Shown here piece by piece: positions 2,331 to 39,869 of a DNA stretch of 64,000 nucleotides (its first letter is position 1; the number at the start of each line of letters is the position of its first letter). The stretch comes from an uncultured Spirochaetaceae bacterium (lineage in GTDB: Bacteria; Spirochaetota; Spirochaetia; SZUA-6; RPPD01). Made by a program: the position numbers and the translations under genes. The stretch covers positions 2,522-66,521 of the forward strand of contig CAZWYY010000013.1 of the NCBI GenBank assembly GCA_964638895.1, written 5' to 3'. The notes under the pieces are model-generated. The model saw nothing but the letters and a program-made list of their open reading frames with translations. It did no database searches and had not been told where the DNA came from.

Positions 2331-2332
2331 AC

Positions 2333-3358
2333 ATGGAAATGCGAAAACCTTTATATAAAGATAAGACCGTTTTTATTGATCATGAACTGGACAAACATAA
2401 GGATGTGTTTGTGGTCAACTGGAACCTGGGCAACCGTTGTAATTATCGCTGCAGCTATTGCAATGAGACGCTGAACAGCGGGTCGGTCCCCTGGCTGGAC
2501 GCGGAGGCCGTGTTATGCTTCGCCGACAAGGTTATAGCGCATTACTCGGGGAAATTGCATAAAAAAATCCTGTTCGAGTTTACGGGCGGTGAGGTTACCC
2601 TCTATAAGGATTTATACAAGGTATTGAAATATTTAAAAGAAAACGGGTGTAAAACGGAAATCTTATCGAACGCCAGTCCCCGGCTGGCGTTCTGGGAGAA
2701 AATAAAAGACGTGCTGGATTACGCGATTCTCAGTTACCACGCGGAACACTGCGCCCCCGAGCATTTTTATGAGGTAGTGAAATCCGTAAACCGCAATATC
2801 AATGTGCACGTCAACATCATGATGAACAGGAATCGTTTTAACCTCTGCCGGGACCTCGGGGTATCGATTATGGACCTGGGCTCCGGTATTTCCTTAAGGT
2901 TCCAGCCCTTGTTGGAAAAATTGGCCGTAAACGCAAAACTGATCGGATACACCGAAGAGCAGCTGGCGTCCATAGGAATACTGAATGATCGGTGCAGCAC
3001 GGATTTTACCGGCCAAAACAGGTACCGCGGGCGCATGATCCATTACACCAGCGGGGGCGGTGAGTTCATCATGGATCCCCTGCAGTATGTAACGGAAAAG
3101 AAGAATCACTGGAGAGGCTGGTTATGCTGGACCGGATTGGAACAGATCGTTGTTTCACAATGGGGCGAGGTTTTTCGTGCCTGGTGTATGCAGGAACAGC
3201 TAGGGAATATCAGCGGACATATTGAGTTTCCGACAAAGCCGGTGGTCTGTACGAAAAAGACCTGCCATTGCAATATCGACATGCTGTGCAAAAAGCAGCT
3301 GCCGGTTTACCTGGATCCGGCAAACCTGAACCGGCTTAAAAAAATCGGCCTTGTGTAA
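2333..3358 (+). CDS. Radical SAM enzyme, family B, with a C-terminal Cys-containing twitch/SPASM-like region
   Basis: CNYRCSYC, FEFTGGEV, C-terminal CTKKTCHC; paralog of 21303-22325. Confidence 0.7.
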   Translation: MEMRKPLYKDKTVFIDHELDKHKDVFVVNWNLGNRCNYRCSYCNETLNSGSVPWLDAEAVLCFADKVIAHYSGKLHKKILFEFTGGEVTLYKDLYKVLKYLKENGCKTEILSNASPRLAFWEKIKDVLDYAILSYHAEHCAPEHFYEVVKSVNRNINVHVNIMMNRNRFNLCRDLGVSIMDLGSGISLRFQPLLEKLAVNAKLIGYTEEQLASIGILNDRCSTDFTGQNRYRGRMIHYTSGGGEFIMDPLQYVTEKKNHWRGWLCWTGLEQIVVSQWGEVFRAWCMQEQLGNISGHIEFPTKPVVCTKKTCHCNIDMLCKKQLPVYLDPANLNRLKKIGLV

Positions 3359-3422
3359 ATTCACCGTCAACCGCGAAGTGTTGATGTAACCTAATATCAA
3401 ACTTTTAAAGGAGAGAACAGCA

Positions 3423-3695
3423 ATGAGTAATAACGGAGACGTAAAGGCAAAGATAAAAGAGCTTTTGGCCGAAGTGACGGGTGACACCGCATTGTCGGGA
3501 AATCTAACGGACTCCTCCGATCTTATCAATGAGATCGGTCTGGACTCGATCCAGATGATCAATTTTATCCTTATGGTCGAGGATGAATTCGGGATCGAGA
3601 TTGATTTTGAGAACTTCGATTACACCAATTTCGAACGCTTTGACTCTTTCTGTCAATTTGTCTCGGAAACCGTGAAGTACCAGACGGTTTCATAA
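3423..3695 (+). CDS. Stand-alone acyl/peptidyl carrier protein (ACP-like)
   Basis: 90 aa, acidic, GLDSIQ phosphopantetheine-attachment-type motif; RBS AAAGGAGAGAA upstream. Confidence 0.65.
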   Translation: MSNNGDVKAKIKELLAEVTGDTALSGNLTDSSDLINEIGLDSIQMINFILMVEDEFGIEIDFENFDYTNFERFDSFCQFVSETVKYQTVS

Positions 3696-3716
3696 GCTTG
3701 CAATAAAGGGATTCTC

Positions 3717-5003
3717 TTGATGAGAACAAAACGCGACATTCAGCGGCTGTTAAAAAAGGGCAAACATTTTTGTCTGGCGCCGTGGGTGCACCTACATGTG
3801 ACGGGCTTGGGGATCATGGGGTTATGCGCCATGTCGGAGCAGGGTCCCTTTGATACGGGGTACGGCAGCCTGAATACCAATTCATTCCCCGAATTATGGC
3901 AGGGTGAGGCTATCAGGGAGTTCCGTTTGAAGATGCTGGAGGATCAGCCGGATTCCCGCTGCGTCAACTGTTATAAAAGTCGGCTGGGATATACCACGTT
4001 GCGGAATGAGATCAATTCCTATTATTGGGGACATCTTGACTGGGTGGCGCATACGGACGCCTCGGGATACGCCCCGCGGGCGAAACCCATATTCTGGGAT
4101 ATTCGTTTTTCCAACATATGCAATTTAAAGTGCCGTTCCTGTATTGATGTATCCAGCACCGGATGGTATGAGGATGCCAAGGCCATGGGATTTTTAAATG
4201 CACGCCATAACGGGGAACCCATCCAAGGCGTAAAAGACCCTGCCCGGTTGTTGCAGGATCTTGAGCCGTACCTGCCCCACCTGGAAGGCATACGTTTCGC
4301 GGGGGGGGAGCCTTTATTAATGGAAGAGAATTATTATCTCATGCAGAAACTTGACGCCCAGCGCAAATACAACATTCGCATTGAATACGAAACGAATATG
4401 ACGAAGCTGTATTACAAAAAAGACCTTTTATTATCTCTATGGAAAAAATTCAAAAATATCCTGGTATCCGTCAGCCTGGACGGATTAGAGGAGAGGTGCG
4501 AATACCTGCGTAAGGGGCTGAAATGGGAGAAGGTACTGGGGTATATAAATGACATTAAAGCACACTGCCCGGGGATCGGCCTGCGGATTAATTACACGGT
4601 GAGCGCCTATAATATCCTGCACGCCGCGGAGTTTCACCGCACCATGGTGGAAAAAAAGTATATCGGGCCTGAACAGATTCAACTCATCTTCCTTGTTGAA
4701 CCCAATTACCTGAGTATGAAAATACTCCCCCCGGCAATGAAAAAAGCCGCAACCAACAAGCTGATGAATCACATACGCTGGCTGCACAGGGAGTATCCAT
4801 TCCGTTCCACCTGCGGATTCAGGAACTGCGGCGGGCTTTTCATTCAATGGCTTACCTGTATTAAAAAACTGAATGAAGAGGATTGGTCGCACCTGATACC
4901 GCAATTTATCGATTACACCAACAAACTGGATACGCTGCGCAGGGAAAACTGCCTCTCAGTTTTCCCTGAAGTAAACGGGCTTTTCCGGTTGCGGGTCGGA
5001 TGA
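3717..5003 (+). CDS. Radical SAM enzyme, family A (paralog of 43-1323)
   Basis: CNLKCRSC, GGEPL, N-terminal FCLAPWVHLHVTGLGIMGLC; likely ATG at 3720. Confidence 0.7.
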   Translation: MMRTKRDIQRLLKKGKHFCLAPWVHLHVTGLGIMGLCAMSEQGPFDTGYGSLNTNSFPELWQGEAIREFRLKMLEDQPDSRCVNCYKSRLGYTTLRNEINSYYWGHLDWVAHTDASGYAPRAKPIFWDIRFSNICNLKCRSCIDVSSTGWYEDAKAMGFLNARHNGEPIQGVKDPARLLQDLEPYLPHLEGIRFAGGEPLLMEENYYLMQKLDAQRKYNIRIEYETNMTKLYYKKDLLLSLWKKFKNILVSVSLDGLEERCEYLRKGLKWEKVLGYINDIKAHCPGIGLRINYTVSAYNILHAAEFHRTMVEKKYIGPEQIQLIFLVEPNYLSMKILPPAMKKAATNKLMNHIRWLHREYPFRSTCGFRNCGGLFIQWLTCIKKLNEEDWSHLIPQFIDYTNKLDTLRRENCLSVFPEVNGLFRLRVG

Positions 5004-5006
5004 ATC

Positions 5007-6734
5007 ATGGAGCTTGTTAAAAGGAAATTAAAGCAAGGCATCACTTTTTTTATGCCCGTCACGGCCGCCCCCCTGATAAATGAGATCTGGGAAAAGGAGG
5101 TGTACAACCGGGCATACTCGCTGAAGGAAAACGATATTGTGCTTGATGTGGGCGCGAATATCGGTGTTTTTTCACTCTACGCCGCTTCCAGGGGGGCGAA
5201 GGTCTTCAGTTTTGAACCCAACCCCGAAGTCTTTGCTGTTTTACAAGAGAACATCAGGATCAATAACCTGGAAAACAGGGTCACACCTTTGAATATGGCC
5301 CTGGGCGATCATAAAGGTAAAGCGACCTTATTCATGGCGCTTTCGGAAAAGATATACGCGCCGGGTTCGGCTTCCATTATGAGGGATTTTATTGATGATC
5401 TGGATAAAAGGTACGGCAAGAATGATTATACCGCCTTCACGGTTTCCTGCCTGCGGTTGGATCAGGCATTGGATTTACTGCGCCTTAAGATGGTTGATTT
5501 TATGAAGGTGGACTGCGAGGGAGCGGAGTACGACATCATGCAAAGCGTTCCGCAGCACAGGCTGGGAGAAATCCGCCGTATCGCCATGGAGATCCATATC
5601 GCCTGTTACTCCCAAAAAGAGTTGTGCCGGATTTTGCGGCAAAAGGGATACGTAGTCAACGAGTTCGAAAAAGCGGATGAATCCTCCCTGACCGGTTTTT
5701 TGTACTGTACCCATTCCGCAATGGGGATAACCGCACCCGGCAAACCGGTCGCGGTTTTGTCGGTCAGGCAGGGGCAAGACATAGATAAAGATTATGTTTT
5801 TTGTAATCAAAGCGTTATTTTTGACGGCAGCCGGAGTTTTATCACAAACGGCGGAGAGCGGAAACCCGTTTTTAAATGGAGCATAGATGAAATTAATGCC
5901 CGCAGCCAAGCTGAAAAATGGAGTTACAGGTTTACGGAACCGGGTTATCACCGGGTGACGCTCTGCCTGCGCCATGACCGTAAATCGGATTCGGCCGAAA
6001 AAGAACTCATGGTTTTACAGGCTGATTATTTTCGGGGCGGCGTTGATCATTACCTTTCACCGCTTAGGGAAGATACGGGAAGGAGTGATGCGAAATGTGT
6101 GACCTTTCATGACGGAGTCAAATTCTCAATCCGGAGTGATCACCTGCCGGCAACCAGGTTCGGACAGCTCTTGATCGAACTTGAAATTAAAAGTTTCCCC
6201 GGTGAACCGCTCTCCGGATTACAGGAGCAGCTGCTCTTATTTGAAATGAACGGCCGGAAGATCGTCCTCGGTGAGCCGAACGAAAAAATACTTATGGATA
6301 CAATTCTTTACGGCATCGACGCCGTTTTTACCCTCACTCCTTATATTTACCGGGGTCAAAGGGAGATCAGCATCAAATGGGGAATACCGGACACGATTTC
6401 CAACATACAAGAGGGAAACAAACCGGACACGGCTCCGCCGGCCGGGGAGACCGGTTTGTATCTTTTCCGGGGCGAGAAGCTTTTTACCATCGGCGTGGAT
6501 ATGTTTCCCCCGGACTGGACCCCGCGGGAAATTGTTATCGATATCAAGCCTTCACAGTACCGGGGCAAAAAAACCGCTTTGTCCGGCTTTCTGTGTTACG
6601 GAAAGCGGGTTACGGCATTATCCGGCTGGAAAGATGGGGCGCGCATAAAAAAGGGCGAGTGGGAGGATGATTTCTCATTCTCGATCAACCTGCCCACGGA
6701 GAATTGTCTCAGGCTGACATGGTGGCCCGAATGA
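5007..6734 (+). CDS. FkbM-family SAM-dependent methyltransferase fused to a ~330-aa C-terminal domain of unknown function
   Basis: LDVGANIGVFSLYAA, FEPNPEVF; C-terminal domain ends TWWPE as in paralog 23308-25038. Confidence 0.65.
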   Translation: MELVKRKLKQGITFFMPVTAAPLINEIWEKEVYNRAYSLKENDIVLDVGANIGVFSLYAASRGAKVFSFEPNPEVFAVLQENIRINNLENRVTPLNMALGDHKGKATLFMALSEKIYAPGSASIMRDFIDDLDKRYGKNDYTAFTVSCLRLDQALDLLRLKMVDFMKVDCEGAEYDIMQSVPQHRLGEIRRIAMEIHIACYSQKELCRILRQKGYVVNEFEKADESSLTGFLYCTHSAMGITAPGKPVAVLSVRQGQDIDKDYVFCNQSVIFDGSRSFITNGGERKPVFKWSIDEINARSQAEKWSYRFTEPGYHRVTLCLRHDRKSDSAEKELMVLQADYFRGGVDHYLSPLREDTGRSDAKCVTFHDGVKFSIRSDHLPATRFGQLLIELEIKSFPGEPLSGLQEQLLLFEMNGRKIVLGEPNEKILMDTILYGIDAVFTLTPYIYRGQREISIKWGIPDTISNIQEGNKPDTAPPAGETGLYLFRGEKLFTIGVDMFPPDWTPREIVIDIKPSQYRGKKTALSGFLCYGKRVTALSGWKDGARIKKGEWEDDFSFSINLPTENCLRLTWWPE

Positions 6735-6752
6735 ATGGGAGGGAAATGAGCA

Positions 6753-8087
6753 TTGGCCGGTAAATTAGTATTAGGCACGTTCAACGCGGAAAAATATTGG
6801 CGGGAAGACGGATTGGCCTGTCTGCCCGAGTTGTATGACGCGGGCGCGGCAAAGATCGTGCGCGCCATGGACGAGCTGTTGTTTCCCCTTTGTGAAAGGG
6901 GTGATGTGTTACTTACCCGTTTTAAGATGGACCCTGCCTTTAAAGACTACCTTAACAGGCTGGGTTTTCAATTTGTGTCAAACAATTTTAACCTGGAGGA
7001 AATCACTGCGGCGGCCGCGGGGCCGGGCGGGGGCTGTATTGAGGAACTGCTGAACCGCAAACGCCGTGACCCGCGACTCTTGGAGTTTCTGGGACCGGTT
7101 AGCTCCTTACACCCGTACGCCGTGCTCCCCGGTACGACGGAGACCGTAAAAAACTTCGGCTGGGAGGAGTGCCACCCGCCTTACGAGGCCGTGAAAAAGG
7201 TAAATTCCAAGGAATATTCCAATGAACTGAACGAGCGGATCGGTGTAAAAAAGTACGGAAAAATAATTCACAGTACGGACGAATATCATGAGACGGCCGC
7301 CCGGATAGGCAACGGAAGGGGGTTCATCATCAAGGACCTGTACGGCGTATCCGGTAAGGGGAACCTGCTTGTCGCCGGGCCCTCACTGCAGAAAAGGATC
7401 GGAAAGCACCTTGCCGCGCAGGAAGAGAAGGGTCTGGCCGTCCGCTTTCTGATGGAACCGTATTTTGACAAGGTGTATGACTTTTCCTGCCAGCTTTACA
7501 TCGGCAGGACGGGGGATTCCCGCATAGTTTCGATACAGGAGATCAAGAATTATCTCTTTACCTACATCGGTTCCCTGAGCGCCGGAGATGATTTTATCTG
7601 TTTTCTTAAGGACCGGGGATACTTCGAACTAATGCAAAAGGTTGCGGAAGAACTTTACGGCGACGGATACTGCGGCGATGTCTGTATAGACTCCATGATC
7701 CTCAAGAACGATGAGCTGGTTCCGGTGGTTGAGATCAACGCGCGTAAATCCATGGGACTGATAAATTATTACATCGACCGCTTCCTGGCTGGATATTCCG
7801 CGCGCGGATATTTTGTTTTTTTTACCGCTGTTTGTGAAGGTCGGACCGGTTTTCACGACATCCTGGAAAAGCTGGAACATGAAGGCATCCTCTTCACCGC
7901 CGCGCGCGGTCGCGGCGTACTGCCGTTGTCGGCCAATGCCCTGTTCGTGAACCAGGACGAGGAGAAGAGTTACAAAGGAAGATTTTATTTTTCCGCGGCC
8001 GCGGGCACCCAGCATGAAAGGCAGGGGCTGGTGGACCGGACCGTCAATGCCTTTACCTCGATGGGATTCCGTGTTTATTACCGCTAA
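6753..8087 (+). CDS. ATP-grasp domain ligase (TTG start)
   Basis: GFIIKDLYGVSGKGNLLV glycine-rich loop, VVEINARKSMG C-terminal motif; RBS GGAGGG upstream of TTG. Confidence 0.5.
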   Translation: MAGKLVLGTFNAEKYWREDGLACLPELYDAGAAKIVRAMDELLFPLCERGDVLLTRFKMDPAFKDYLNRLGFQFVSNNFNLEEITAAAAGPGGGCIEELLNRKRRDPRLLEFLGPVSSLHPYAVLPGTTETVKNFGWEECHPPYEAVKKVNSKEYSNELNERIGVKKYGKIIHSTDEYHETAARIGNGRGFIIKDLYGVSGKGNLLVAGPSLQKRIGKHLAAQEEKGLAVRFLMEPYFDKVYDFSCQLYIGRTGDSRIVSIQEIKNYLFTYIGSLSAGDDFICFLKDRGYFELMQKVAEELYGDGYCGDVCIDSMILKNDELVPVVEINARKSMGLINYYIDRFLAGYSARGYFVFFTAVCEGRTGFHDILEKLEHEGILFTAARGRGVLPLSANALFVNQDEEKSYKGRFYFSAAAGTQHERQGLVDRTVNAFTSMGFRVYYR

Positions 8088-8098
8088 AGGAGACATAA

Positions 8099-9243
8099 TG
8101 AAAGAAGACAAGGTTACTATTTTGGCCTCGGGCGTGGCCTTGGGAGTATATATCCCGGCCCTGCTTGTCAATTATCAGCTGCGGCGGCGCGGTGTGGCGG
8201 CTGAGGTTGTTGTTCTGGAAAATCTTTTGCTGCCTGAAAAAAAGGCGAAGATACCCGCCAACAAGCAGGCCTTTCACAGGAGTTTCCGTGTCGCCCTAGC
8301 CGGACAAAAAATGGCTGTCGACCTTTGGCCTCATTATGATAAGAAGGCGCTGGCCGGGTTATTCGACGCTTGGCAGGGGGAGGGGAGGAGGAACTTTATT
8401 GTTTTTTCCGGGTTCTGGATGTCCGTGCTCCGTGAATATATCAACACGGTTCCCGGAAACGGAATGAACGTGGAGATTGTGCACATGGACGCGGATATAT
8501 CCGCCTCGTGGCGGCTTTTCAGGCGGGAGACTACGGGGTTTAATAATGTCTGGCTGTTTGACGGGCGGAATAAGAAGGTGGACTATGAACTCAGGATCGC
8601 GCAGCATCCCCCCGTGCCGTACCGAAGCAGGCCGGACCGTTACGTAATTCACGGTGGCGGTTGGGGAATGGGGAACTACCGGGAAAAAATCGCGGAATTG
8701 GAAGAAGGCGGACTGAAGCTTGATATCGTTGCCTATGAAGCGGAGGAAACCGAGAACCTTAAAGCGGGCCACAGGAGTTTCATGATTGATCCGTGCTGGT
8801 CACCCTGGATAAAGAATAATAACGATGAACACGAGTTTCCGCCCTTCGGTCAAATAACCGGCGGCCGGGCCCCTGTATTTAAAAACAAACAGGAGTATCA
8901 CGATCTTTTTGACGTGATCCGCCTGAGCAGGGCGATTATCAGCAAGCCCGGCGGCGCTACCCTGGCGGATTCCCTGGCTTCAGCCACGCCCCTGGTTATA
9001 CTGGAGTCTTTCGGGAATTATGAGCAACAAAACGCTGAACTATGGGAGCACCTTGGTTTCGGTATCCGGTATGATGATTGGAAAACGGCAGGTTTCTCAG
9101 GGGGTATTCTGGAAAAATTTCATTATAACCTTTTATCTGCCGCGGGTTTGGCCGTGGACTATGTCAGTGATTATATAGACAGGAATTGCGGCCGCGCGCC
9201 CGGGGTCTTGGGACCGGGAAGGTCGCTTCACGGCGTAAATTAA
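8099..9243 (+). CDS. GT-B glycosyltransferase, MurG/MGDG-synthase (GT28)-like
   Basis: VIHGGGWGMGNY and KPGGATLADSLASATPLV motifs; RBS AAGGAGACA; start moved from ORF-track 8014 to ATG 8099. Confidence 0.5.
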
Positions 9244-9269
9244 CCGCCGTCTTTGTAAGGAGGATTATT

Positions 9270-10442
9270 TTGCAGCCAAAAACAGCGGTCAGGTTTGACC
9301 GGAAATCGTTCGAACGTATTAAGCGGACCATACGCAATATGTCGGTGGGCAGGAGCTCCATCAGGCAGGATCCCGGGTTTGCCATGAGGCTTCCCGATGA
9401 AATCGGCATCCAGTTGACCAACAAATGCAATCTGCGCTGCCGCCATTGTTTTCAATGGAATGAGGAGGGTTTTTTCAACAGCTTTGACAAGGGAACACAG
9501 AAAGACGAGCTTGATTTCCCGCTGATAGAAAAAATTCTGGCTCAAACGGCGGGCGTCAAATCCAACCTGTATTTATGGGGCGGTGAACCGCTTTGTTACA
9601 CCCACTGGGATGAGCTTTCGTATGCCCTGGAAAAGGATCCGCGTTGGACGGTCTTCTGTACGAACGGCATCGATGTTGAGAAGAAACTCGAGTCCCTGCT
9701 GCGGGTGTCCTCATCACTCGCCATGCTTGTCAGCGTTGAGGGGTTCGAGGAAGAGCACGACGCGGTCAGGGGCCGGGGTACGTATAAGAAGGTGATGGAA
9801 AGTATCGATCTGTTATTGAAGCTGAAAAGACAAAACAAGTTCAAGGGAGAGGTGTCCGTCAACTGTGTGATAAACGAGAGTATGATCGGGAAGCTGTATC
9901 AGTTCGCCCGGATGTTCGAGGAAAATGGCATCAACACCCTGTATTTCTGTTTTCCGTGGTACATCCCCCGCTCGTCCGCGCTGCATATGGATGCGTTCTT
10001 TAAAAAGAACTTCGGCTGGCTGCGCACATTGGACAATGACCATGCCGCGAGTTGGCATTCCTATACATACCATCTTTCCCCCGACGTGACGCGCGCGCTG
10101 ACGGCCGATTTGGGCCGGGTAAGCGAAAAGGTTTGGAAAATAAGAATGCGTTACCAGCCCGCGCTTAAGCCCGGAGAGATTGAAGGTTTTATCAGGGGTG
10201 AGGAAACCACAGCCCAGAAAAGAAGCAAATGTATCGGTCTTACCAACCGCATGAATGTCATGCCGTCGGGAAAGGTCACCGTCTGTAAGCTATTCCCGGA
10301 ATTTGAAATAGGCGACCTTACGGGTTCGGGCGTTGAAGAGGTATGGAACAATGAGACCTTCAGGCGGGTGCGTGAAATCTTAAATCGGGGACTGACCCCG
10401 GTCTGTTCAAAATGCATTCTCCTTTATCTGCACGGGGTGTAG
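9270..10442 (+). CDS. Radical SAM/SPASM-domain enzyme (AtsB/PqqE-like architecture)
   Basis: LTNKCNLRCRHC, GGEPL, C-terminal CIGL...VCKLFPEFEIGDL...CSKC; TTG 9270 with AAGGAGG at 9257-9263. Confidence 0.7.
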   Translation: MQPKTAVRFDRKSFERIKRTIRNMSVGRSSIRQDPGFAMRLPDEIGIQLTNKCNLRCRHCFQWNEEGFFNSFDKGTQKDELDFPLIEKILAQTAGVKSNLYLWGGEPLCYTHWDELSYALEKDPRWTVFCTNGIDVEKKLESLLRVSSSLAMLVSVEGFEEEHDAVRGRGTYKKVMESIDLLLKLKRQNKFKGEVSVNCVINESMIGKLYQFARMFEENGINTLYFCFPWYIPRSSALHMDAFFKKNFGWLRTLDNDHAASWHSYTYHLSPDVTRALTADLGRVSEKVWKIRMRYQPALKPGEIEGFIRGEETTAQKRSKCIGLTNRMNVMPSGKVTVCKLFPEFEIGDLTGSGVEEVWNNETFRRVREILNRGLTPVCSKCILLYLHGV

Positions 10443-10451
10443 CGGATTACA

Positions 10452-11528
10452 ATGAAGACCTACAGCTTTGTTATTCCCACGTATAATAAAAAAGCACTCC
10501 TAAAGAACACGCTTGAAGCGCTGAACTACCAGCCGGGCTACGGCTACTATGAAGCGGTTGTGGTGGACGACGGCTCGGACGACGGCACCCGTGATTATAT
10601 CAAGGAAACGGCCAGGAATTACGAGCTGAAGTATCTCTACCTGGAAAGGGATATGAATTCGTGCCGGGCCAGAACAAGGAACCACGGATGGAAGAACGCC
10701 GGGGGCGAGGTGATTGTCTTCATCGATTCGGATATAATCATCAAGCCGGATTACCTGGCGGAGCTTGAGCGCTGCTTTGGGCTTGATGATGATATCGCGG
10801 TTATCGGCAACAGGCTGATGCTGCCGGAACCGTCGACATATAAAGAGGTGACCGGCCTGGAGATCTACCGGAAATACGGCTTCGGCGGGCATAAGGATCT
10901 GCGGGAGTTCCGGTACCTTTTATACGGAGATACCTCCTACAATATCAACGCCCATGCCTACCCCTGGACGCAGTTTTACAGTTGTAATGCGGCGCTGCCG
11001 AAGAAATGCCTGGAACAAACCGGCGGCTTTGATGAAAATTTCAAGGGCTGGGGCGTGGAGGACATTGAGCTTGGTTATGAGCTGTATAAAAGGAACATTC
11101 CTATTGTCATAAACCATAAACTGGAAGTGTTTCATCAGTATCACGGTCCGAGGAACGACCTGTCCATTAAGCCTGAGCTTGTTCCCGACTATGAAAGGAA
11201 TATCGCTTACTTTCTAAAGAAACATCCGCAGTCGCTACACATGCCCGACAAGTATAAGTATGATTTTTTAAAAGGCGAGTTAAAGGACGATTCGTTTTTT
11301 AGCGAAAACGGCAAGCGGTATATCGGCGTGGATTTCAGAGACCGGTCTCAATTGGGTAATCTGAAGAACCTGCTGCTCAAGTCGATATCCAGGGATAAAA
11401 CCGTCATAGTGGTTAATGACTACCTTGAAAATACGGACCTTGATATCTGGATTCAGCTTCCCAAAAAGCAGGGGCAGATCACGGCCCGCTATTTCCCAAT
11501 GTCAAAAAAGGCGGAACGGCACGGATGA
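10452..11528 (+). CDS. Family 2 glycosyltransferase with a conserved C-terminal extension
   Basis: FVIPTYNK, VVDDGSDDGT, FIDSDI; paralog of 14112-15290 including the tail VNDYLENTDLDIWI...YFPMSKK. Confidence 0.7.
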   Translation: MKTYSFVIPTYNKKALLKNTLEALNYQPGYGYYEAVVVDDGSDDGTRDYIKETARNYELKYLYLERDMNSCRARTRNHGWKNAGGEVIVFIDSDIIIKPDYLAELERCFGLDDDIAVIGNRLMLPEPSTYKEVTGLEIYRKYGFGGHKDLREFRYLLYGDTSYNINAHAYPWTQFYSCNAALPKKCLEQTGGFDENFKGWGVEDIELGYELYKRNIPIVINHKLEVFHQYHGPRNDLSIKPELVPDYERNIAYFLKKHPQSLHMPDKYKYDFLKGELKDDSFFSENGKRYIGVDFRDRSQLGNLKNLLLKSISRDKTVIVVNDYLENTDLDIWIQLPKKQGQITARYFPMSKKAERHG

Positions 11529-12328
11529 GAGTCTTTATCACGGTTATAAAACTCTACCTCAAGGTGATGATCCAATACCGCACAACCTTCATGCTTTCGC
11601 TCATCGGGGAGCCTGTGCTGTATCTGATCAATATCATTTATTTTTCCGCCATCTATGCCTACAATGGCAAGGACACGGTTTTGGGTTATAGCCTGACCCA
11701 GATGATATGGTATTTTGCCGGTATATCACTTGTCTGGCAGTGTATCTGGAACTCCACCGACAATAATATCTCTCAAAAGATTCTATCCGGCGACCTGGCG
11801 GTAGACCTGTTGAAGCCGTTTTCCACGTTAAAACTGGAACTGGCCTATGCCCTGTCGGCGAGAATCCTGGCCGTTATGCTGGAGTTTGTACCGGTTCTGG
11901 CCATATACATGCTGCTTTTTTTCCCCGGGTTTATCACCATTTTTGTGGTAATCAAATTTTTGATCGTCATGCCCCTGTCTTTTCTTATGTTTTTTCTGTT
12001 GAACTACCTGATCGGGCTGACGGCATTTTTTATTAAAAACAATACCTCCCTGCAGACCGTCAAGTACGTGCTTATTACCCTGACGGCCGGCGGGTTCATT
12101 CCCCTGGATTTTTTTCCGCAATGGGTGCAGCGCGTAACCGGAGTGCTGCCGTTTCAATACCTTTTTTACTGGCCAATTCAGATCCTTTTAAACCGGGAAA
12201 CGACAAAGGGGTGGGAAAATTTTACGCGAATCGTTTCCTGGCAGTTGTTATGGATAGCGGGCTTTTATCTTTTATCCAGGATTTTCTGGAAACGGGCAAT
12301 AAGAAAATATTGCGCCGTGGGGGGATAG
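11525..12328 (+). CDS. ABC-2 type transporter permease
   Basis: About six hydrophobic segments; C-terminal KRAIRKYCAVGG similar to the next permease; 4-nt overlap with upstream gene. Confidence 0.55.
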   Translation: MRVFITVIKLYLKVMIQYRTTFMLSLIGEPVLYLINIIYFSAIYAYNGKDTVLGYSLTQMIWYFAGISLVWQCIWNSTDNNISQKILSGDLAVDLLKPFSTLKLELAYALSARILAVMLEFVPVLAIYMLLFFPGFITIFVVIKFLIVMPLSFLMFFLLNYLIGLTAFFIKNNTSLQTVKYVLITLTAGGFIPLDFFPQWVQRVTGVLPFQYLFYWPIQILLNRETTKGWENFTRIVSWQLLWIAGFYLLSRIFWKRAIRKYCAVGG

Positions 12329-12377
12329 CGTAATATTAATCCTCAACCTGTTCAGATTTTTCTTACTCAACAGCAGA

Positions 12378-13124
12378 TTGAAACTGTTACGGGGAATGCA
12401 GTACAAGACCGACTTCTTCATGGGCATATTTCTGTCCATGAGCTTTTCCAGTCTGGGTCCCCTTTTCCAGTACCTTATCTTCAGCCAGACAAGGGGATAC
12501 CCGCGCTGGAACCTGAAGCAGATCATCCTATTCCAAGGTGTGGTACTCTTATGGCTGGGTATAAAAGACCTGCTTTTCGGAGAAATACGCGGTTACGTGG
12601 AGAGTATGGTAAAAGGAGGGAATTTCGACAGGCTGCTGCTTAAGCCGTATCCCCCTCTGGGCGTTATCCTGACCAGCGGCTTCTATTACCATGCCTTTGG
12701 CACGATTATCGCGGGAGCGGTAATCATTGCCGTTTCCCTTCAGCAGTTGGGACTGGTCTTAAGCTGGTGGCAACCGCTGCTTTTCGTGGGTTTCTTTGCC
12801 TGCGGCATTTTGCTGCATATGACCATAACCATATTGTACTGTATCATGATTATCAGGCTTACCCACATGGGACGGCTGGGAGAAATCATCGACAAACTGC
12901 TCCAGTTCTCCCAATATCCCCTGGATATCCTTTCCCCGGTTCTCCGCATGGCCCTGATGGTGTTTCTGCCGATCGCCATCTGGATCTATTTCCCCACGGA
13001 GATCCTGCTTGACAGGCTTGAGGTGAACGCTTTCATGGGAGTGGCGGTGGCTCTTGCACTCTTCTTTGCCAGTCTTTTTTTATGGAAGAGAAGCCTTAAG
13101 AGATATACCAGTGCGGGAGGGTAG
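12378..13124 (+). CDS. ABC-2 type transporter permease (second subunit)
   Basis: Polytopic hydrophobic protein; C-terminal KRSLKRYTSAGG. Confidence 0.55.
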   Translation: MKLLRGMQYKTDFFMGIFLSMSFSSLGPLFQYLIFSQTRGYPRWNLKQIILFQGVVLLWLGIKDLLFGEIRGYVESMVKGGNFDRLLLKPYPPLGVILTSGFYYHAFGTIIAGAVIIAVSLQQLGLVLSWWQPLLFVGFFACGILLHMTITILYCIMIIRLTHMGRLGEIIDKLLQFSQYPLDILSPVLRMALMVFLPIAIWIYFPTEILLDRLEVNAFMGVAVALALFFASLFLWKRSLKRYTSAGG

Positions 13125-13127
13125 GTT

Positions 13128-14111
13128 ATGAGTGATAACATTATCAAAATAAAAAACTTAAAGAAGGTCTTCAAGGTGCGGGTAAAAAGTAAAGAAGGCA
13201 TGTGGGCTTCGGTAAGGCTGCTGTTTAAAGGAGAGTACAAGCTGGTGACCGCGGTTGACGGATTGAGCATGAATGTGAAAAGGGGCGAGATAAAGGGGCT
13301 GATCGGTCCGAACGGTGCCGGAAAGTCCACCACCATCAAAATAATTTCTGGTATTCTTTTTCCCAGTGAGGGTACCGTGGATGTGCTGGGGTTTACGCCG
13401 TGGCTGCAGAGGAGGGAGTACGTCAGGCACATCGGCGTACTCTTCGGTCAAAAAACGCAGTTGTTTTGGGATTTACCCCCTATGGACACCTTTTTACTGC
13501 ACAGGGAAATGTATAAAATACCCGAAAAGCGCTTTCGGAAAAACGTGGCGTATTTTAAACAGGTGCTGCAGCTGGAAGAGGTGGTAAAAAGGCCCGTACG
13601 GAATCTCTCCCTGGGAGAGAGGATGAAGTGCGAGCTGGTGTGCGCCATGCTGCATGAGCCGGAGCTTGTCTACCTGGACGAGCCGACCATCGGGCTTGAC
13701 CTGTTTGCCAAAGAGTCCATCAGGAATTACATCAAGCGGATTAAGAAAGAGAAAAACACCACCTTTATCCTGACCACCCATGATCTGAATGAAATTGAAA
13801 ATATCTGTGAAAACGTCAGTATCATCAATAAGGGCAAAATCGTATATAACGGGGCGCTGGAGAATCTCAGCTCCTTTTTTACAAAACGGAAGATTATCGA
13901 GGTGAAGTTTACGCGGAAAACGGACACGACGGCGCTGGGTAATTTCAAGATTGTTTCCTCCAACCCCTTTTCCGTAAAGATCGAGGTGGACCTGACAAAA
14001 AACAAGATTCAGGACGTCGTGTACGGTATTTTTAACGTACTGCCGGTACAGGACATCAATATACAGGATGTCGGTATCGAGGATATCATAAAACAGATTT
14101 ATACACGGTAA
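13128..14111 (+). CDS. ABC transporter ATP-binding protein with a ~90-aa C-terminal extension
   Basis: GPNGAGKSTT Walker A, LSLGERMKCEL signature, LVYLDEPTIGLD Walker B. Confidence 0.8.
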   Translation: MSDNIIKIKNLKKVFKVRVKSKEGMWASVRLLFKGEYKLVTAVDGLSMNVKRGEIKGLIGPNGAGKSTTIKIISGILFPSEGTVDVLGFTPWLQRREYVRHIGVLFGQKTQLFWDLPPMDTFLLHREMYKIPEKRFRKNVAYFKQVLQLEEVVKRPVRNLSLGERMKCELVCAMLHEPELVYLDEPTIGLDLFAKESIRNYIKRIKKEKNTTFILTTHDLNEIENICENVSIINKGKIVYNGALENLSSFFTKRKIIEVKFTRKTDTTALGNFKIVSSNPFSVKIEVDLTKNKIQDVVYGIFNVLPVQDINIQDVGIEDIIKQIYTR

Positions 14112-15290
14112 ATGAAGTACAGTATTGTAATTCCCACCCATAACAATAAAATCCTCTTGAAAAATACGCTGGAAGCCTTAAACCGCCAAAATGGATTCGG
14201 GAAAGACGATTACGAGGTGATCGTGGTCGACGATGGTTCACAGGACGGTACGTGGCGCTTTATCCGTGGGGTAGGGAGAAACTACGAATTAAAATACCAC
14301 TACCTTGAAAGGTGCAAGGACTCTTGTCGCGCCAGAACCAGGAATTACGGGTGGCGGAACGCCGGCGGTGATATTGTGGCGTTTATCGATTCCGATATCC
14401 TGGTGGCGGATGACTATCTCTTACAGCTTGAACGTTGCTTTTCAATAAGCGAGGATATCTTGTTAATAGGCAACCGCCTCATGCTCAACAAGCCCGTCTC
14501 CCCGGGGAGTATTGCCGGCGGAAGGGTGTTCAGGGATTTTGGTTTTGACGGAAATGATTTCAGTATCCTGGAATTCCGTTATTTTCTGTACGAGGTAGCG
14601 TCTTATAACGCCAATGCCATCATGTGTCCCTGGATGCAGATTTACAGCTGCAATATGGCCGTTTCGCGGAACTGGCTGCACAAGGTCGGGGGTTTTGATG
14701 AGCGCTTCAAGTTTTGGGGCATGGAGGACCTTGAAATCGGTTTTGCCCTTTACGACGCCGGGATCCAGATCGTTATCAATCCCAAGTTGGAGGTTCTGCA
14801 TCAATACCACGGCAGGCGCAATGATCTGGTGGTGGAGCAGAGAAAAATCGCCGGGTATGAAAAAAATATCGATTATTTCCTGGACAAACATCCCCACGCG
14901 CTCCGCATGGGTAGAAAATTCGCCTACAAATTATTCAAGGGGGAAATATCCTCTGATAAAATGCTTATCGACAACAAATGGGAAAAGACCGTGCTGGATT
15001 TCAGGGACAGTACCAGGCTGAATGAGATCAAGGACGTGATTTTAAAATTAAGCGCCAAAGAAAAAATAAAGCCTATTGTCAATGATTATGTTGAGGATAC
15101 AGACCTGGATATCTGGATCAACCTGCTGGGCGTCACACCCAGCGTAGTGAAGTATTTTCCCATGTCGAAAAGGCTCCCTGCGGGCAAGATGCTGAGTTTT
15201 TTGAAAGAGGAGAAAGCACGACAGCTCGGCACCCCGCCGACCGGATCCTGCCGCGAATTTAATACCGATGGAATAAGAAATGCAAATTAG
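14112..15290 (+). CDS. Family 2 glycosyltransferase (paralog of 10452-11528)
   Basis: IVIPTHNN, VVDDGSQDGT, FIDSDI; conserved tail VNDYVEDTDLDIWI...YFPMSKR. Confidence 0.7.
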   Translation: MKYSIVIPTHNNKILLKNTLEALNRQNGFGKDDYEVIVVDDGSQDGTWRFIRGVGRNYELKYHYLERCKDSCRARTRNYGWRNAGGDIVAFIDSDILVADDYLLQLERCFSISEDILLIGNRLMLNKPVSPGSIAGGRVFRDFGFDGNDFSILEFRYFLYEVASYNANAIMCPWMQIYSCNMAVSRNWLHKVGGFDERFKFWGMEDLEIGFALYDAGIQIVINPKLEVLHQYHGRRNDLVVEQRKIAGYEKNIDYFLDKHPHALRMGRKFAYKLFKGEISSDKMLIDNKWEKTVLDFRDSTRLNEIKDVILKLSAKEKIKPIVNDYVEDTDLDIWINLLGVTPSVVKYFPMSKRLPAGKMLSFLKEEKARQLGTPPTGSCREFNTDGIRNAN

Positions 15291-18831: not shown

Positions 18832-18857
18832 AAAAACAGCACCAGGGGGGTGATACA

Positions 18858-20249: not shown

Positions 20250-21315
20250 TAATTATTTAGACGCGGAGCAAACCGAGGAAGAAATTAAGCGCGGGTTCGA
20301 GGAAAATATCTCCGCTTACCTGGACTGCCGCTATGCCGTCCCGGTTGTCAATGGCACGGTTGCGCTTGAGGTTGCCCTGCGCGGGCTGGGCCTCTCACGG
20401 GGAGACTGCGTTATTGTGCCTGATATCTCCTTCATCGCCACGGCCACGGCCGTGGCCAATTGCGGCCTGGTGCCGGTGTATGCGGATGTAAGTCCCACAT
20501 ACTTCGGACTTACCCTGGAAACACTGCAAAACAGGAATTGTTCCGGGGTAAAAGCCGTGGTGCTGGTACATTTTTCCGGGTTTGTCAACAGGGAGCTGTT
20601 TGAGATAATCGAATACTGTTACAGTAACGGCCTGGCCCTGGTGGAAGACTGCGCCCAGGCGTTTGCCTGTACGGCCCACGGTAGAAAGGTGGGCACCTTC
20701 GGCGACGCGGGCGCGTTCAGTTTTCAATCCTCCAAAAGTATAAGCGCCGGTGAAGGGGGGCTTGTCTGCACCGACAAGCGGCACCTGGCCGCGCAGTTCC
20801 AGGCCGTTTCCGACTGGGGGATGAGCCCCTTGTTTAAGCGCCGAAAACTTGCGCTTGCCAGCAGCAACTTCCGGCTCAGCGCCCTGCAGTGTTATGTTTT
20901 GGGCCGGAAACTCGAACATATCGACAGCACGGTAGCGGCAAGACGCGAACGCTGCGCCCGGTTGGAAGACGCCTGCCGCGAACTGGGCCTGGAACACTGT
21001 CTGCCTGCCCCCAGACCGGAATATTTTGACTGCCCCTTCTTTTTTCCGCTGAAAAGCGCGCGCAAACTTAACAGCATAGAGCCCCGGGAAGAGTCTCCCC
21101 TGCATAGATCCGCCATAGTAGTCGCCATTCTGGAACGCTTTTACCCGGATCTGCTGAAGCGGTATTATGAACTCAATCCTCCCGGGGTCATGTCGGAATT
21201 CGCCGGCAACAAGGTTATTACTGATATTGATTTTATCAACATCAGCCAAACATGGAATCTGCCCGCGGATCAGGTAGTGTCTGCGTACAAGGAGGCGGTG
21301 TTATGTCGGAAATAA
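20233..21315 (+). CDS. DegT/DnrJ/EryC1/StrS-family PLP-dependent (sugar) aminotransferase
   Basis: VNGTVALEVAL, GDCVIVPDISFIATA, FSFQSSKSISAGEGG (PLP Lys). Confidence 0.75.
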   Translation: MKSAINNYLDAEQTEEEIKRGFEENISAYLDCRYAVPVVNGTVALEVALRGLGLSRGDCVIVPDISFIATATAVANCGLVPVYADVSPTYFGLTLETLQNRNCSGVKAVVLVHFSGFVNRELFEIIEYCYSNGLALVEDCAQAFACTAHGRKVGTFGDAGAFSFQSSKSISAGEGGLVCTDKRHLAAQFQAVSDWGMSPLFKRRKLALASSNFRLSALQCYVLGRKLEHIDSTVAARRERCARLEDACRELGLEHCLPAPRPEYFDCPFFFPLKSARKLNSIEPREESPLHRSAIVVAILERFYPDLLKRYYELNPPGVMSEFAGNKVITDIDFINISQTWNLPADQVVSAYKEAVLCRK

Positions 21316-22325
21316 TGGCCCTGCGGCACCAGTTTGAAAAAACCGAAAATATTCTGCTTGTAGACTGGTGTGTCAGCAATATCTGTAATTTCGCCTGCTC
21401 GTATTGCCCGGAACATACCCACGCGGGTACGCATCCGTTTATGCCAATTAAAAATATCCTACTGTTTTCGGACCGGATTGTGGATCACTACGTAAAGAAA
21501 CTGCATAAAGAGGTCTATTTTCTTTACACGGGTGGCGAGGTGACCTTGTATAAGGATTTTATTCCCCTGATCCGCACTCAAAAAGAGAACGGCCACCGTG
21601 TGAGTATCAGTACCAATGGATCGCGCAGGTTGTCCTTCTGGCAGGAGGTTAAAAAATACCTGTTCCAGGTAAGCATGAGCTACCACGATGAGTATACGGA
21701 CCTGGATCATTTCATCAATGTAATAAACCTGATAAAGTCGGACACCTATACCCATGTTAATATCATGGTCCAGCCCGACCGCTTCCAGCAGTGTCTGGAC
21801 GCGGCCTACCGGGTGCTGCATGAAACCGATGATATCACCATCGATCTCCAGATTGTGTTGAGGGATTTCATCGAGCCTTACCCATATACAAATCAGCAGC
21901 GCAGGCTCATCATCGCGGTGGGTAAGGAAATCAACGGCAAACTGAAACTAAAACGCAAGCGGGACAGTTACCGCGGGCTGATGAAACTTGTGTTTCGTGA
22001 CGGCTCACACGAGTTGGTAAAACCCGGTGATCTTCTAACAAGAAATTTGCACGCCTGGCGGGGCTGGAGCTGTTACATTGGTCTTGAGATCCTGGTGGTT
22101 GATCTGAACGGTGATATCTACAGGAGCTGGTGCGGCGACGCCGGTAAAATCGGGAATATTAATGATGAACAGATACACTTTCCCACAAAACCGCATATCT
22201 GCGGCAGGGCCTATTGCAGCGGGGGGATCACCGACACCATGGTCACAAAAATCAAGGAGGCATGTAATGAGCAGCCGGACGACAGCCGGAGTGTTCTCGC
22301 CGTTTACAATCAGGGACGGGTTTGA
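21303..22325 (+). CDS. Radical SAM enzyme, family B (paralog of 2333-3358)
   Basis: CNFACSYC, YTGGEVTLYKDF, C-terminal WRGWSCYIGL...CGRAYC; AAGGAGG RBS before ATG 21303. Confidence 0.7.
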   Translation: MSEIMALRHQFEKTENILLVDWCVSNICNFACSYCPEHTHAGTHPFMPIKNILLFSDRIVDHYVKKLHKEVYFLYTGGEVTLYKDFIPLIRTQKENGHRVSISTNGSRRLSFWQEVKKYLFQVSMSYHDEYTDLDHFINVINLIKSDTYTHVNIMVQPDRFQQCLDAAYRVLHETDDITIDLQIVLRDFIEPYPYTNQQRRLIIAVGKEINGKLKLKRKRDSYRGLMKLVFRDGSHELVKPGDLLTRNLHAWRGWSCYIGLEILVVDLNGDIYRSWCGDAGKIGNINDEQIHFPTKPHICGRAYCSGGITDTMVTKIKEACNEQPDDSRSVLAVYNQGRV

Positions 22326-23292: not shown

Positions 23293-23307
23293 AGGGAGGG
23301 TTTTCTG

Positions 23308-25038
23308 ATGAGGACCGTGACAAATAAACTGGACAATGGCTATGAGGTGGAGATGGACCCCGGTGCTGAGTTCATTGTGCATGAGATCTGGGACGATTTG
23401 TTTTATGACCGTGATTACCACATCGGACGCGGTGATATAGTCCTGGATATCGGGGCGAATATAGGCATATTTTCGCTTTTCGCCGCATACCGCGGGGCCC
23501 GGGTCTATGCCGTGGAACCGGATGAACATAACTACAATCTATTGTGCTCGAATATTGAAAGGAACGGACTCGGCCGCCGGATTCATCCCATTTTCTGCGC
23601 TGCCGCCAAAAATGACGGTACTATAGCGCTTTACATCCCCCCTGCGGAAAAATTATGCGCGTCCGGCATGATAACAACCTCGCTTGCCCAGATAGAGAAG
23701 CTTACAGGGCATGACACTTCCGGGGTCAGTGTAACCAGGGTGAAATCCGTCTCACTCCCCGGCCTGCTGAGGCAAATAGCGGAAGCGCACATCTCCCTAT
23801 TAAAACTGGATACCGAAGGCGCGGAACTGGATATTCTTCTCGGAACGGACGCGGACGATCTGCGATCCGTGGAGTGCATAGTCATGGAGACACACTCATC
23901 CTATACCGAGCGGGAGCTTTATCACCGGGTGCGCAGGCTGGGATTCGACGTTATCAGTTATGAAAAGCGCACCGGACCTTTCTTAACCGGCTATCTTTAC
24001 GCAAAGAAGGCCCGGGCGGGAAGGCCTGCCGGTCGTACCAGGCCCGTCGCCATCCTCACTGTTCCCGGGAGTGTGGATTCCCCGAACAGTGCCATCGCAG
24101 ACGCCGGACAGAGTTTTTCAACCGTAAACCCGGATTGCTGCGGTCTCGGTTACCGTTTCAGCGTGGATGGGAAGGAGGAACCATTTTCCACCGATCCTGT
24201 CCGGCATATACATTTTAAGAAACCGGGACTTCACCGCATTTCAGTTGATATTCTGGAAGGCGGTATTGACAACTGCAGGCAGAAAAACATGCCGGCCGGT
24301 TTCGGCAGCGACCGGGCCGAGAAAACAGTATGGGTTTTCACCGAGCACTACGGACCGTCCCCGCGCGCCCTGGCCCTGCCCGAACTGGGGAAAAAAAAGG
24401 AGTTTACCGTTTCCGCCCAAACAGAGTTTTTCATACCGGCAGAGAACATTCCCAAGCAATGGGATTATGACGCCCTGGGTATCGGTGTAGGTCTATTGGA
24501 CACGCCCGAAAACCCGGAAGAACCGCACATCAGCCTGCTACATAACGGGGTGCGGACCAAAATCACCTCAAGTTACCAGGAGGTCATTATTCCCGCTTTT
24601 CCCAGGGGGCGCGATCTTTGTTTTTCTTTCGAAAGCGCGTGCAATTTCCGGGTATGCCTGCATTGGTTTGCCAGAGTCGGGGCGGAGGCTCCCGTGCTTC
24701 CGGTGCTTGATTGCCGTAACAGCCGAGGACAGCTTCTTGGAGAAAAATCATCGGCGCATATCTGCCTGTTCGAAGGTGAGGGCCGTTTGGTGGTCGCGCG
24801 GGAGTTATTGCCGAAAACATGGAATCCGGTCTGTGTAAAGATCTGTTTTTCGGTGCACGAGCGGGATACCACAGGAAAGGAACTGGAGGGCGAACTGGTG
24901 TTCAAGGGGCGTTGTTTCACATTACTGGGTTGGTATAAGGAAATTAACTTCAGCGGGGAGGAGATCCGTAACAAAATGGAGTATATGGTGCGGGTGCCGT
25001 GCGCCCGTGTCTATCAGGTTACCTGGTGGCCCGAATAA
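23308..25038 (+). CDS. FkbM-family methyltransferase with C-terminal unknown domain (paralog of 5007-6734)
   Basis: LDIGANIGIFSLFAA, VEPDEHNY; C-terminus YQVTWWPE. Confidence 0.65.
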   Translation: MRTVTNKLDNGYEVEMDPGAEFIVHEIWDDLFYDRDYHIGRGDIVLDIGANIGIFSLFAAYRGARVYAVEPDEHNYNLLCSNIERNGLGRRIHPIFCAAAKNDGTIALYIPPAEKLCASGMITTSLAQIEKLTGHDTSGVSVTRVKSVSLPGLLRQIAEAHISLLKLDTEGAELDILLGTDADDLRSVECIVMETHSSYTERELYHRVRRLGFDVISYEKRTGPFLTGYLYAKKARAGRPAGRTRPVAILTVPGSVDSPNSAIADAGQSFSTVNPDCCGLGYRFSVDGKEEPFSTDPVRHIHFKKPGLHRISVDILEGGIDNCRQKNMPAGFGSDRAEKTVWVFTEHYGPSPRALALPELGKKKEFTVSAQTEFFIPAENIPKQWDYDALGIGVGLLDTPENPEEPHISLLHNGVRTKITSSYQEVIIPAFPRGRDLCFSFESACNFRVCLHWFARVGAEAPVLPVLDCRNSRGQLLGEKSSAHICLFEGEGRLVVARELLPKTWNPVCVKICFSVHERDTTGKELEGELVFKGRCFTLLGWYKEINFSGEEIRNKMEYMVRVPCARVYQVTWWPE

Positions 25039-39546: not shown

Positions 39547-39673
39547 GCATTTTCCGTCAACTTTGCTTGTTCCGGCCTCACGATTGTTTTAAAATAAGTA
39601 TAGAAAGCGGAGGCGTTCCGGCGGGTTTTTCCCACATTCGGATTTTATTGAGTTGCAAGAGAGGATCTAACAG

Positions 39674-39865
39674 GTGTCCAAGAAGGTAAGCTCATTCAAG
39701 GAACTGGCGGAGTTCGTGCAGTCCTTCGGCATCAGCGAGAGTGAGGCCATTCACATTGCCGAAAGCTTTATGGACAGGAATAAGATCGATTTCGACGCGG
39801 ACGGGAACTTCACCCCGCTTGACGTGGATTTTTCCAAAGACAGCAATGAAATAAAAAAAGCCTGA
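39674..39865 (+). CDS. Small hypothetical protein
   Basis: 63-aa ORF with RBS-like GAGAGGA upstream; no recognisable motif. Confidence 0.25.
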   Translation: MSKKVSSFKELAEFVQSFGISESEAIHIAESFMDRNKIDFDADGNFTPLDVDFSKDSNEIKKA

Positions 39866-39869
39866 TACC

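Follow-up and report, generated by a model that had tools for sequence, protein, structure and literature searches.

What are the long C-terminal extensions of two methyltransferases, encoded in one gene cluster of an uncultured Spirochaetaceae bacterium, made of, and what do they do for the enzymes that carry them? The cluster lies in a 64,000-nucleotide stretch of contig CAZWYY010000013.1 (GenBank assembly GCA_964638895.1, positions 2,522 to 66,521), which was analysed whole and is referred to below as the window. Its gene A (5007..6734, + strand) and gene B (23308..25038, + strand) encode paralogous FkbM-family methyltransferases of 575 and 576 residues, respectively, both of which end in TWWPE. 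The annotation "FkbM family methyltransferase" alone hides over half of each protein. We found that this hidden part, hereafter called the tail, is composed of three domains: a PKD domain and, after it, two homologous beta-sandwich repeats.

Two FkbM methyltransferases share a homologous tail

Residues 1-240 of A (5007..5726, + strand) form a class I S-adenosylmethionine (SAM)-dependent methyltransferase domain of the FkbM type, with the invariant motifs D47-x-G49-A-N51-x-G53 and K167-x-D169-x-E171-G172-x-E174. Against the Pfam family Methyltransf_21 (PF05050, cutoff 22.7 bits), A scored 66.6 bits (residues 47-216) and B scored 65.5 bits (residues 47-210); against TIGR01444 (fkbM_fam, cutoff 37.7 bits) the scores were 101.6 and 83.6 bits. 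Both proteins have the class I Rossmann-type methyltransferase fold with its glycine-rich SAM-binding motif. The RfbT family (PF05575) was matched at 15.9 and 16.0 bits, under its gathering threshold of 27.9, and NCBIfam r20 recognised nothing in A or B besides the fkbM domain.

Over their full length A and B are 25% identical (BLASTP, E=2e-48), and, compared by themselves, their C-terminal ~331 residues can be aligned from one end to the other with 19% identity. So low an identity could in principle reflect a chance or compositional likeness between two tails that share no domain. However, the BLASTP alignment is significant over the full tail (E=1e-9), and a profile built from B and five of its relatives, with A excluded, matched residues 339-575 of A at 34.4 bits (E=1.8e-9), while the highest score among 2000 shuffles of the post-PKD region of A was 4.4 bits. 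Moreover, the same architecture recurs in about 40 family clusters, and the family alignment yields a confident AlphaFold2 (AF2) model. We therefore give chance likeness practically no probability. These results confirm what an initial annotation, made without database searches, had claimed: that A and B are FkbM methyltransferases with a shared C-terminal extension. The extensions do align significantly when taken alone. Both open reading frames begin and end exactly where it had placed them, and the motifs it quoted (SxSF..., PGxHR(V/I)(T/S) and TWWPE) fall in aligned columns.

Neither A nor B has a hydrophobic segment, a signal peptide or an amphipathic segment (the maximal 19-residue hydropathy, 1.2-1.5, falls on the strand that binds SAM), and across an alignment of 38 family members the N-terminus is conserved. 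Consequently, both are predicted to be soluble cytoplasmic proteins, as fits a SAM-dependent enzyme. The nearest relatives of A are P0015, P0017 and P0025 (49-52% identity within the methyltransferase domain) and those of B are P0003-P0007 (40-66% identity). Since the closest relatives of the two differ, A and B are old paralogues, each belonging to its own conserved, radical-SAM-rich gene module. A recent duplication was ruled out by the 25% identity and by the presence of closer orthologues of each protein in separate loci.

The tail combines a PKD domain with a duplicated beta-sandwich

The PKD-like domain spans residues 246-338 of A (5742..6020, + strand; boundaries from domain hidden Markov models (HMMs)) and residues 246-345 of B (24043..24342, + strand; domain HMM, 80.3 bits). 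Compared with the PDB, a profile of the tail family matched the PKD domain of ColH (4jgu, E=0.003) and that of 2c26 (E=0.009). An exhaustive HMM search of 1.84 billion representatives at a threshold of E<=1e-3 returned 582 proteins; most of the listed matches outside the family were long multi-repeat proteins with 4-11 matching stretches each, confined to profile positions ~1-85. Dozens of such proteins matched the PKD part of the profile, down to E=1e-21, and they behave as PKD-repeat proteins would be expected to. In Pfam, PKD_4 was detected at E<=0.01 in 9 of 38 family members, and the truncated relative P0045 exceeded the thresholds of both PKD models (PKD_4, 29.5 versus 27; PKD, 24 versus 23.5). 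A and B themselves do not reach the gathering threshold of Pfam PKD (PF00801/PF18911): A matched PKD_4 at 13 bits (E=0.11, cutoff 27) and B gave no match. In the full-length model, residues 247-338 of A are all-beta, but the per-residue confidence (pLDDT) is only 48-71. The consensus of this region, L.Y.W.IDG ... G.H.I.L.V, resembles the PKD signature. Thus the first ~90 residues of the tail are best assigned, at the profile level, to the PKD domain.

The remainder of the tail is a tandem repeat of a single domain of ~100-115 residues. In A, repeat 1 covers residues 345-461 (6039..6389, + strand; ending ...ISIKWG), as delimited from the AF2 model, hhalign and domain HMMs, and repeat 2 covers residues 477-575 (6435..6731, + strand; ending ...LRLTWWPE), of which residues 482-575 are also matched by the repeat-1 HMM at 5.5e-11. 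In B, repeat 1 covers residues 354-455 (24367..24672, + strand; ending ...RVCLHWF), with residues 359-453 also matched by the repeat-2 HMM at 3.1e-11, and repeat 2, assigned by domain HMM, covers residues 479-576 (24742..25035, + strand; ending ...YQVTWWPE). Each repeat HMM thus cross-matches the other repeat inside both proteins. When the two repeat profiles were aligned to each other with hhalign, the probability of homology was 99.2% (E=1.4e-19 over 96 columns); in the controls, reversed repeat 2 gave 1.9%, and the PKD domain matched neither repeat. The two repeats have the pattern F.IP...P..W...I.I.I ... (F)NG....L...Y.EI ... D..F ... I.WW in common. AF2 modelling of residues 338-575 of A from a 38-sequence alignment gave an all-beta structure of two domains with a pLDDT of 90.5, in which each repeat has the fold of a jelly-roll beta-sandwich of about 100 residues, of a generic type. 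Conserved positions of the tail (A numbering) are S277, F278, G313, D328, Y341, F373, P381, N415, G416, D438, F441, W458, P501, W504, P506, G527, W572 and W573.

The last two of these form the WW pair that is invariant in 38 of 38 family representatives examined. The chain stops exactly two residues after it in 34 of the 38, and the final residue is E in 27, a regularity that, together with the ABC (ATP-binding cassette) exporters encoded beside the genes, could be taken to mean that the tail is a spacer, an oligomerisation device or a membrane-proximal one: a ruler, or an anchor acting through the terminal WWxE, that positions the methyltransferase at a membrane-bound assembly or export machine. 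We consider this improbable. A W(W) at the equivalent position closes the internal repeat 1, where a free terminus is impossible; the modelled WW pair stands at the end of a long, confident beta-strand (the last blocks have a pLDDT of 96-98) and so seems to belong to the fold itself, not to a flexible anchor; and the tail contains no amphipathic or hydrophobic segment. The first two of these observations also led us to reject TWWPE as a C-terminal sorting or anchoring tag.

Searches with the post-PKD region returned no described relative. Among the 38 post-PKD regions no Pfam family was common to all, even at E<=1 and with the families of carbohydrate-binding modules (CBMs) in Pfam included, and a sequence search of the PDB gave no meaningful match (best E=0.34, spurious). 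Our literature search found no paper on a duplicated WW-ending sandwich or on a combination of FkbM with PKD or radical SAM domains. By these sequence comparisons, the WW-ending repeat qualifies as a previously undescribed domain family, absent from Pfam (2025 copy), NCBIfam r20 and the PDB. In structure comparisons, the top Foldseek ranks were occupied by proteins with tandem sandwiches, namely the SID1 family, the s3a-s3b segment of ColG (E=1.2e-7) and pairs of CUB domains. The nearest folds of the repeats also included the collagen-binding domain, GOLD domains, PirA, several CBMs and the SID1 ectodomain; several CBMs scored about 7, and all matches had at most ~12% identity over ~90 residues.

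We hold this structural and evolutionary description of the tail with high confidence. It departs in several respects from the initial annotation, which had taken the extension for one domain of ~330 residues: a PKD domain and two tandem homologous repeats were found instead. A match to a well-known domain, which it had named as grounds for refutation, does exist for the first ~90 residues (PKD), whereas the remaining ~240 match no described sequence family. TWWPE, singled out as a special terminus, is the end of repeat 2 and has its counterpart at the end of repeat 1. Nor is the extension specific to this system, since its architecture is shared by other clusters of several types, as follows.

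A rare family whose module occurs on other enzymes

The full architecture, FkbM-PKD-b-b (b being one beta-sandwich repeat), was found by domain HMMs and Pfam in ~40 representatives of 50%-identity clusters, with lengths of 553-578 residues. Methyltransf_21 is present in all 38 aligned members, and similarity to the RfbT family, below threshold, was seen at E<=0.01 in 13 of the 38 (best 2.3e-7). When 185,579 species-representative genomes were scanned, two of the best 80 loci contained a full-length member, both in Spirochaetes/Spirochaetales metagenome-assembled genomes (MAGs), and in the other 78 of these loci only the methyltransferase part was matched; the genomes thus contain at least two full-length members. 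P0006 likewise comes from a Spirochaetales MAG. FkbM-PKD-b-b is thus a rare family whose named sources are Spirochaetes MAGs. A word-index search with the tail of A retrieved A alone, and one with the 38-sequence post-PKD alignment retrieved nothing; the tool is insensitive, so that this is no evidence of absence.

Using the same domain HMMs and Pfam, we identified five further arrangements of the module. FkbM-PKD-b, with a single repeat, is found in P0016, P0045, P0052, P0060, P0126 and P0140, and P0058 has the form FkbM-(PKD-b)x3. Two repeats, with no PKD domain, are attached to N-terminal-twitch (N-twitch) radical SAM enzymes in P0041 and P0132, both from locus L090. In P0054, PKD-b-b follows a polysaccharide-deacetylase-like (CE4-like) domain. 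Finally, P0055, from a Spirochaetales MAG, is a 913-residue fusion in which FkbM-PKD-b-b continues into an N-twitch radical SAM enzyme. The module is mobile among chemically unrelated enzymes in similar clusters. Within the window itself, a six-frame HMM search detected no copy besides those of A and B, and the radical SAM enzymes of the window are without repeats.

Locus L090 is a Logan contig (SRR22302365), possibly of Bacteroidota origin, on which genes 80-2062 and 10001-11986 encode the two paralogous N-twitch enzymes of 660 residues. Beside them are genes for a large family 2 glycosyltransferase (GT2), for further radical SAM enzymes and for methyltransferases, and the locus also encodes a Por_Secre_tail protein and a TonB Plug protein. 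In loci L088 (5834-7267) and L093 (12427-13917), genes adjoining family members encode Glyco_transf_7N/7C glycosyltransferases with a Laminin_G_3 domain, another lectin-like beta-sandwich on what is presumably a cytoplasmic enzyme.

A proposed role in targeting tailoring enzymes

The extension consists of beta-structure throughout, the folds nearest to it are those of ligand-binding sandwiches, and the module occurs on other enzyme types in similar clusters; the most plausible reading, as the initial annotation had suggested, is therefore a non-catalytic role in binding a substrate or carbohydrate. Specifically, we propose, with a probability that we put at roughly 0.45-0.5, that the tail works in the cytoplasm as a non-catalytic module by which tailoring enzymes are brought to one common target, a substrate or complex that is probably derived from carbohydrate. 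Targeting is suggested by the lack of any catalytic-family signal, by the ligand-binding nearest folds, and by the shuffling of the module among unrelated enzymes, as CBMs are shuffled among carbohydrate-active enzymes. A carbohydrate-derived target is suggested by the glycosyltransferases, sugar aminotransferase, deacetylase, carbamoyltransferase and ABC-2 exporters encoded nearby, and by the weak RfbT-like similarity of the 13 members. According to this proposal, the tail would keep the methyltransferase attached to whatever substrate or biosynthetic complex the enzymes of the whole cluster work on. The target would be a carbohydrate-derived intermediate or glycan chain, produced by sugar-modifying enzymes and GT2s and then exported by ABC transporters, and the methyl acceptor would be a sugar hydroxyl. 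N-twitch radical SAM and deacetylase-like enzymes that carry the module would thereby be led to the same target, and A and B would each serve their own conserved gene module, the two modules being joined in the operon described below.

Several observations weigh against this proposal. PKD and jelly-roll domains typically occur in proteins that are secreted, so that carbohydrate binding by them in the cytoplasm would be unusual. P0012 (L094) lies within a non-ribosomal peptide synthetase (NRPS) cluster, with no obvious glycosyltransferases on its ~17-kb contig, and P0022 (L091) is without obvious biosynthetic neighbours; because of these two contexts, the target may not always be a glycan. Lastly, the presence of the module on methyltransferase and radical SAM enzymes is equally compatible with modules that bind each other.

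The latter possibility deserves separate consideration. The methyltransferase and the N-twitch radical SAM enzymes might bind each other through their tails, or bind a common scaffold protein, and form a multi-enzyme tailoring complex that couples radical SAM chemistry with methylation. The repeats are found on both enzyme classes, and P0055 joins the two in one chain, a link of the Rosetta-stone type; in most loci the family members have radical SAM genes beside them; and some of the nearest folds (GOLD, CUB) mediate protein-protein contacts. However, with A and B the only carriers of repeats in the window, homotypic docking of tail to tail is impossible here, and the occurrence of the module on a CE4-like enzyme agrees with a common substrate no less than with a common complex. 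We therefore regard docking as the main rival to targeting, though a less likely one.

Extending the targeting proposal, one may suppose that the repeat represents a novel family of binding domains of the cytoplasm that recruits an O-methyltransferase, N-twitch radical SAM enzymes and a deacetylase-like enzyme to one intermediate. It would then mark an uncharacterised class of radical-SAM-rich clusters, found in Spirochaetota and in other uncultured anaerobes, whose product is exported and is a glycoconjugate, or resembles an aminoglycoside, with heavy modification. In this full form the idea is tentative and somewhat doubtful. The tail signature does pick out a coherent, rare set of radical-SAM-rich clusters in uncultured bacteria. 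The shared modules and the natural fusion tie the methyltransferase functionally to the N-twitch radical SAM enzymes, themselves uncharacterised, and the isolated module offers a concrete handle for finding the substrate or partner.

Operon structure and neighbouring genes

A and B belong to one + strand operon of ~28 kb (43..~28589). It is unusually dense in radical SAM genes: the CxxxCxxC motif is present in nine of its genes, starting at 43, 2333, 3717, 9186, 15280, 16248, 17662, 21252 and 25063. Also encoded in the operon are two GT2s, an ABC-2 exporter, a 90-residue carrier protein, an ATP-grasp-like protein, a DegT aminotransferase, an old-yellow-enzyme-type reductase and two class-B-like radical SAM enzymes; the window further encodes an AprD4/PhpK-like radical SAM enzyme. 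Positions 43-14111 are colinear with loci L092 and L007 at 38-68% identity, and positions 16248-25038 are colinear with L001/L002 at 61-81% identity; in L001/L002 the first gene of the module is of the NDP-sugar epimerase/dehydratase type, and the last two encode ABC exporters. The operon is thus a fusion of two modules, one around A and one around B, that are found separately elsewhere.

The most constant neighbour of family members is a radical SAM enzyme, here called '322-type', which was identified by Pfam and has the motif CNYRCSYC at 2333..3358 (+ strand). A second such enzyme is encoded two genes upstream of B (21252..22325, + strand), and its L001/L002 orthologues, 77-79% identical, occupy the same position. 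Genes of this type adjoin a family member in L001, L002, L005, L007, L092 and L094. The 336-residue product of 1320-2330 has no Pfam match and is a '322-type' paralogue that lacks CxxxCxxC, with 24-39% identity to homologues in other loci. It is kept beside its active paralogue in L005, L007 and L092, and may be a degenerate, non-catalytic radical SAM partner.

Directly upstream of A, 3717..5003 (+ strand) encodes an N-terminal-twitch (SPASM) radical SAM enzyme with SPASM at residues 19-86 and Radical_SAM (Pfam). Its paralogues are encoded at 43-1323 and 17662-18831, which makes three copies in the window; genes of this kind are also present in L001/2, L007, L090, L092 and L093. NF033640 (N_Twi_rSAM) was matched at 64.1 bits, against a cutoff of 170, by the 17662-18831 paralogue.

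In module A, an apparent intergenic gap contains an open reading frame for the 90-residue carrier protein (3423..3695, + strand; GLDSIQ motif). Together with the ATP-grasp-like gene at 6753-8087, it resembles the carrier-protein/ATP-grasp side-chain pathway of butirosin. Its PP-binding orthologues (66-71% identity) directly follow the A-type family member in L005, L007 and L092. This arrangement, and the location of P0012 inside an NRPS cluster, raise the possibility that the tail binds this 90-residue acyl or peptidyl carrier protein, or an NRPS or peptide substrate, and so presents a tethered intermediate to the methyltransferase. Yet no carrier protein is listed in module B or in its orthologous loci L001-L004, although B has the same tail, and L088 and L093 are rich in glycosyltransferases and without a carrier protein. 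Recognition of a carrier is accordingly a possibility to which we give little weight.

For the targeting of a carbohydrate-derived intermediate, the pertinent neighbours are those that make, modify and export sugars. In the window they include the DegT aminotransferase and the AprD4/PhpK-like radical SAM enzyme. In module A, two GT2s flank an ABC-2 exporter composed of two ABC2_membrane_6 proteins and an ATPase (10452..15290, + strand; Pfam); this segment is colinear in L092 at 55-68% identity. Locus L093 encodes two GT7-like transferases, a carbamoyltransferase, a CE4 deacetylase and an ABC-2 system, and L088 encodes the CE4-like-PKD-b-b protein, the GT7 protein with Laminin_G_3, an ABC exporter and another FkbM protein.

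The listed starts of 22111-23292, 8014-9243 and 9186-10442 overlap the upstream genes by 215, 74 and 58 nucleotides, respectively. Their orthologues can be aligned only from residues ~45-56, ~26 and ~28 onwards, and the reductase orthologue is 325-329 residues long. Because of these overlaps and late-beginning alignments, the true starts are probably further downstream. The products of two other genes, both in module B, have no Pfam family. The product of 18858-20249 (463 residues) has L001/L002 counterparts that are 71-79% identical, always between the N-twitch radical SAM gene and DegT, and that of 26478-27722 (414 residues) has no more than a weak, sub-threshold MftM-like match.

Just downstream of the operon, 29331-32987 (- strand) encodes a 1217-residue hybrid sensor with a periplasmic-binding-protein domain, HisKA/HATPase, a receiver and GGDEF. 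The same set of domains recurs at the same relative position in L001, and the sensor may have a regulatory or sensing function connected with the cluster. Further on, 34915-43619 contains genes for an Lhr helicase and a 918-residue DUF3160 protein, and the rest of the window (44523-64000) looks like the ordinary chromosomal metabolism of an anaerobe, with genes for AMMECR1, two phenylacetate-CoA-ligase-like enzymes, a TPR-repeat peptidase of C39-like type, a Liv-type ABC importer and a thiamine pyrophosphate (TPP)-dependent ferredoxin oxidoreductase.

Comparison with known systems

Within the FkbM family (PF05050, TIGR01444), residues 1-240 of A and B are bona fide members that carry the invariant DxGANxG SAM motif. 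Ordinary members are single-domain proteins of ~250-300 residues; A and B are longer by their PKD and tandem-repeat tail, which our literature search did not find in any described FkbM member. RfbT (WbeT, PF05575) methylates the terminal sugar of the Vibrio cholerae O1 O-antigen. The 13 members noted above are weakly similar to it, A and B fall below the cutoff, and the genomic context of the family includes glycosyltransferases and ABC exporters.

The organisation of the tail is mirrored by the clostridial collagenases ColG and ColH, whose accessory segment consists of one or more PKD domains (s2) followed by one or two collagen-binding domains (s3a-s3b). A and B have the same order of catalytic domain, PKD and tandem sandwich, but this is a resemblance and not membership. 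The collagenases are secretory proteins, whereas A and B lack a signal peptide and depend on the SAM of the cytoplasm; there is no detectable sequence relationship between the collagen-binding/PPC domains and the repeats of A and B; and a structural similarity of the same size is seen with GOLD, SID1, PirA and CBM folds.

Among glycan-binding systems, the Wzt ATPase of ABC-transporter-dependent O-antigen export bears a jelly-roll glycan-binding domain, which Pfam did not detect in the ABC ATPase of the window. CBMs accompany carbohydrate-active enzymes in a comparable manner, but the repeats of A and B belong to no CBM family in Pfam. Accessory beta-sandwiches on tailoring enzymes are familiar, there is nothing unusual in the methyltransferase domain, and PKD domains are of a known kind. 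What is new is the duplicated WW-ending sandwich, and its value lies chiefly in a new domain family and in the lead that it gives into unknown chemistry.

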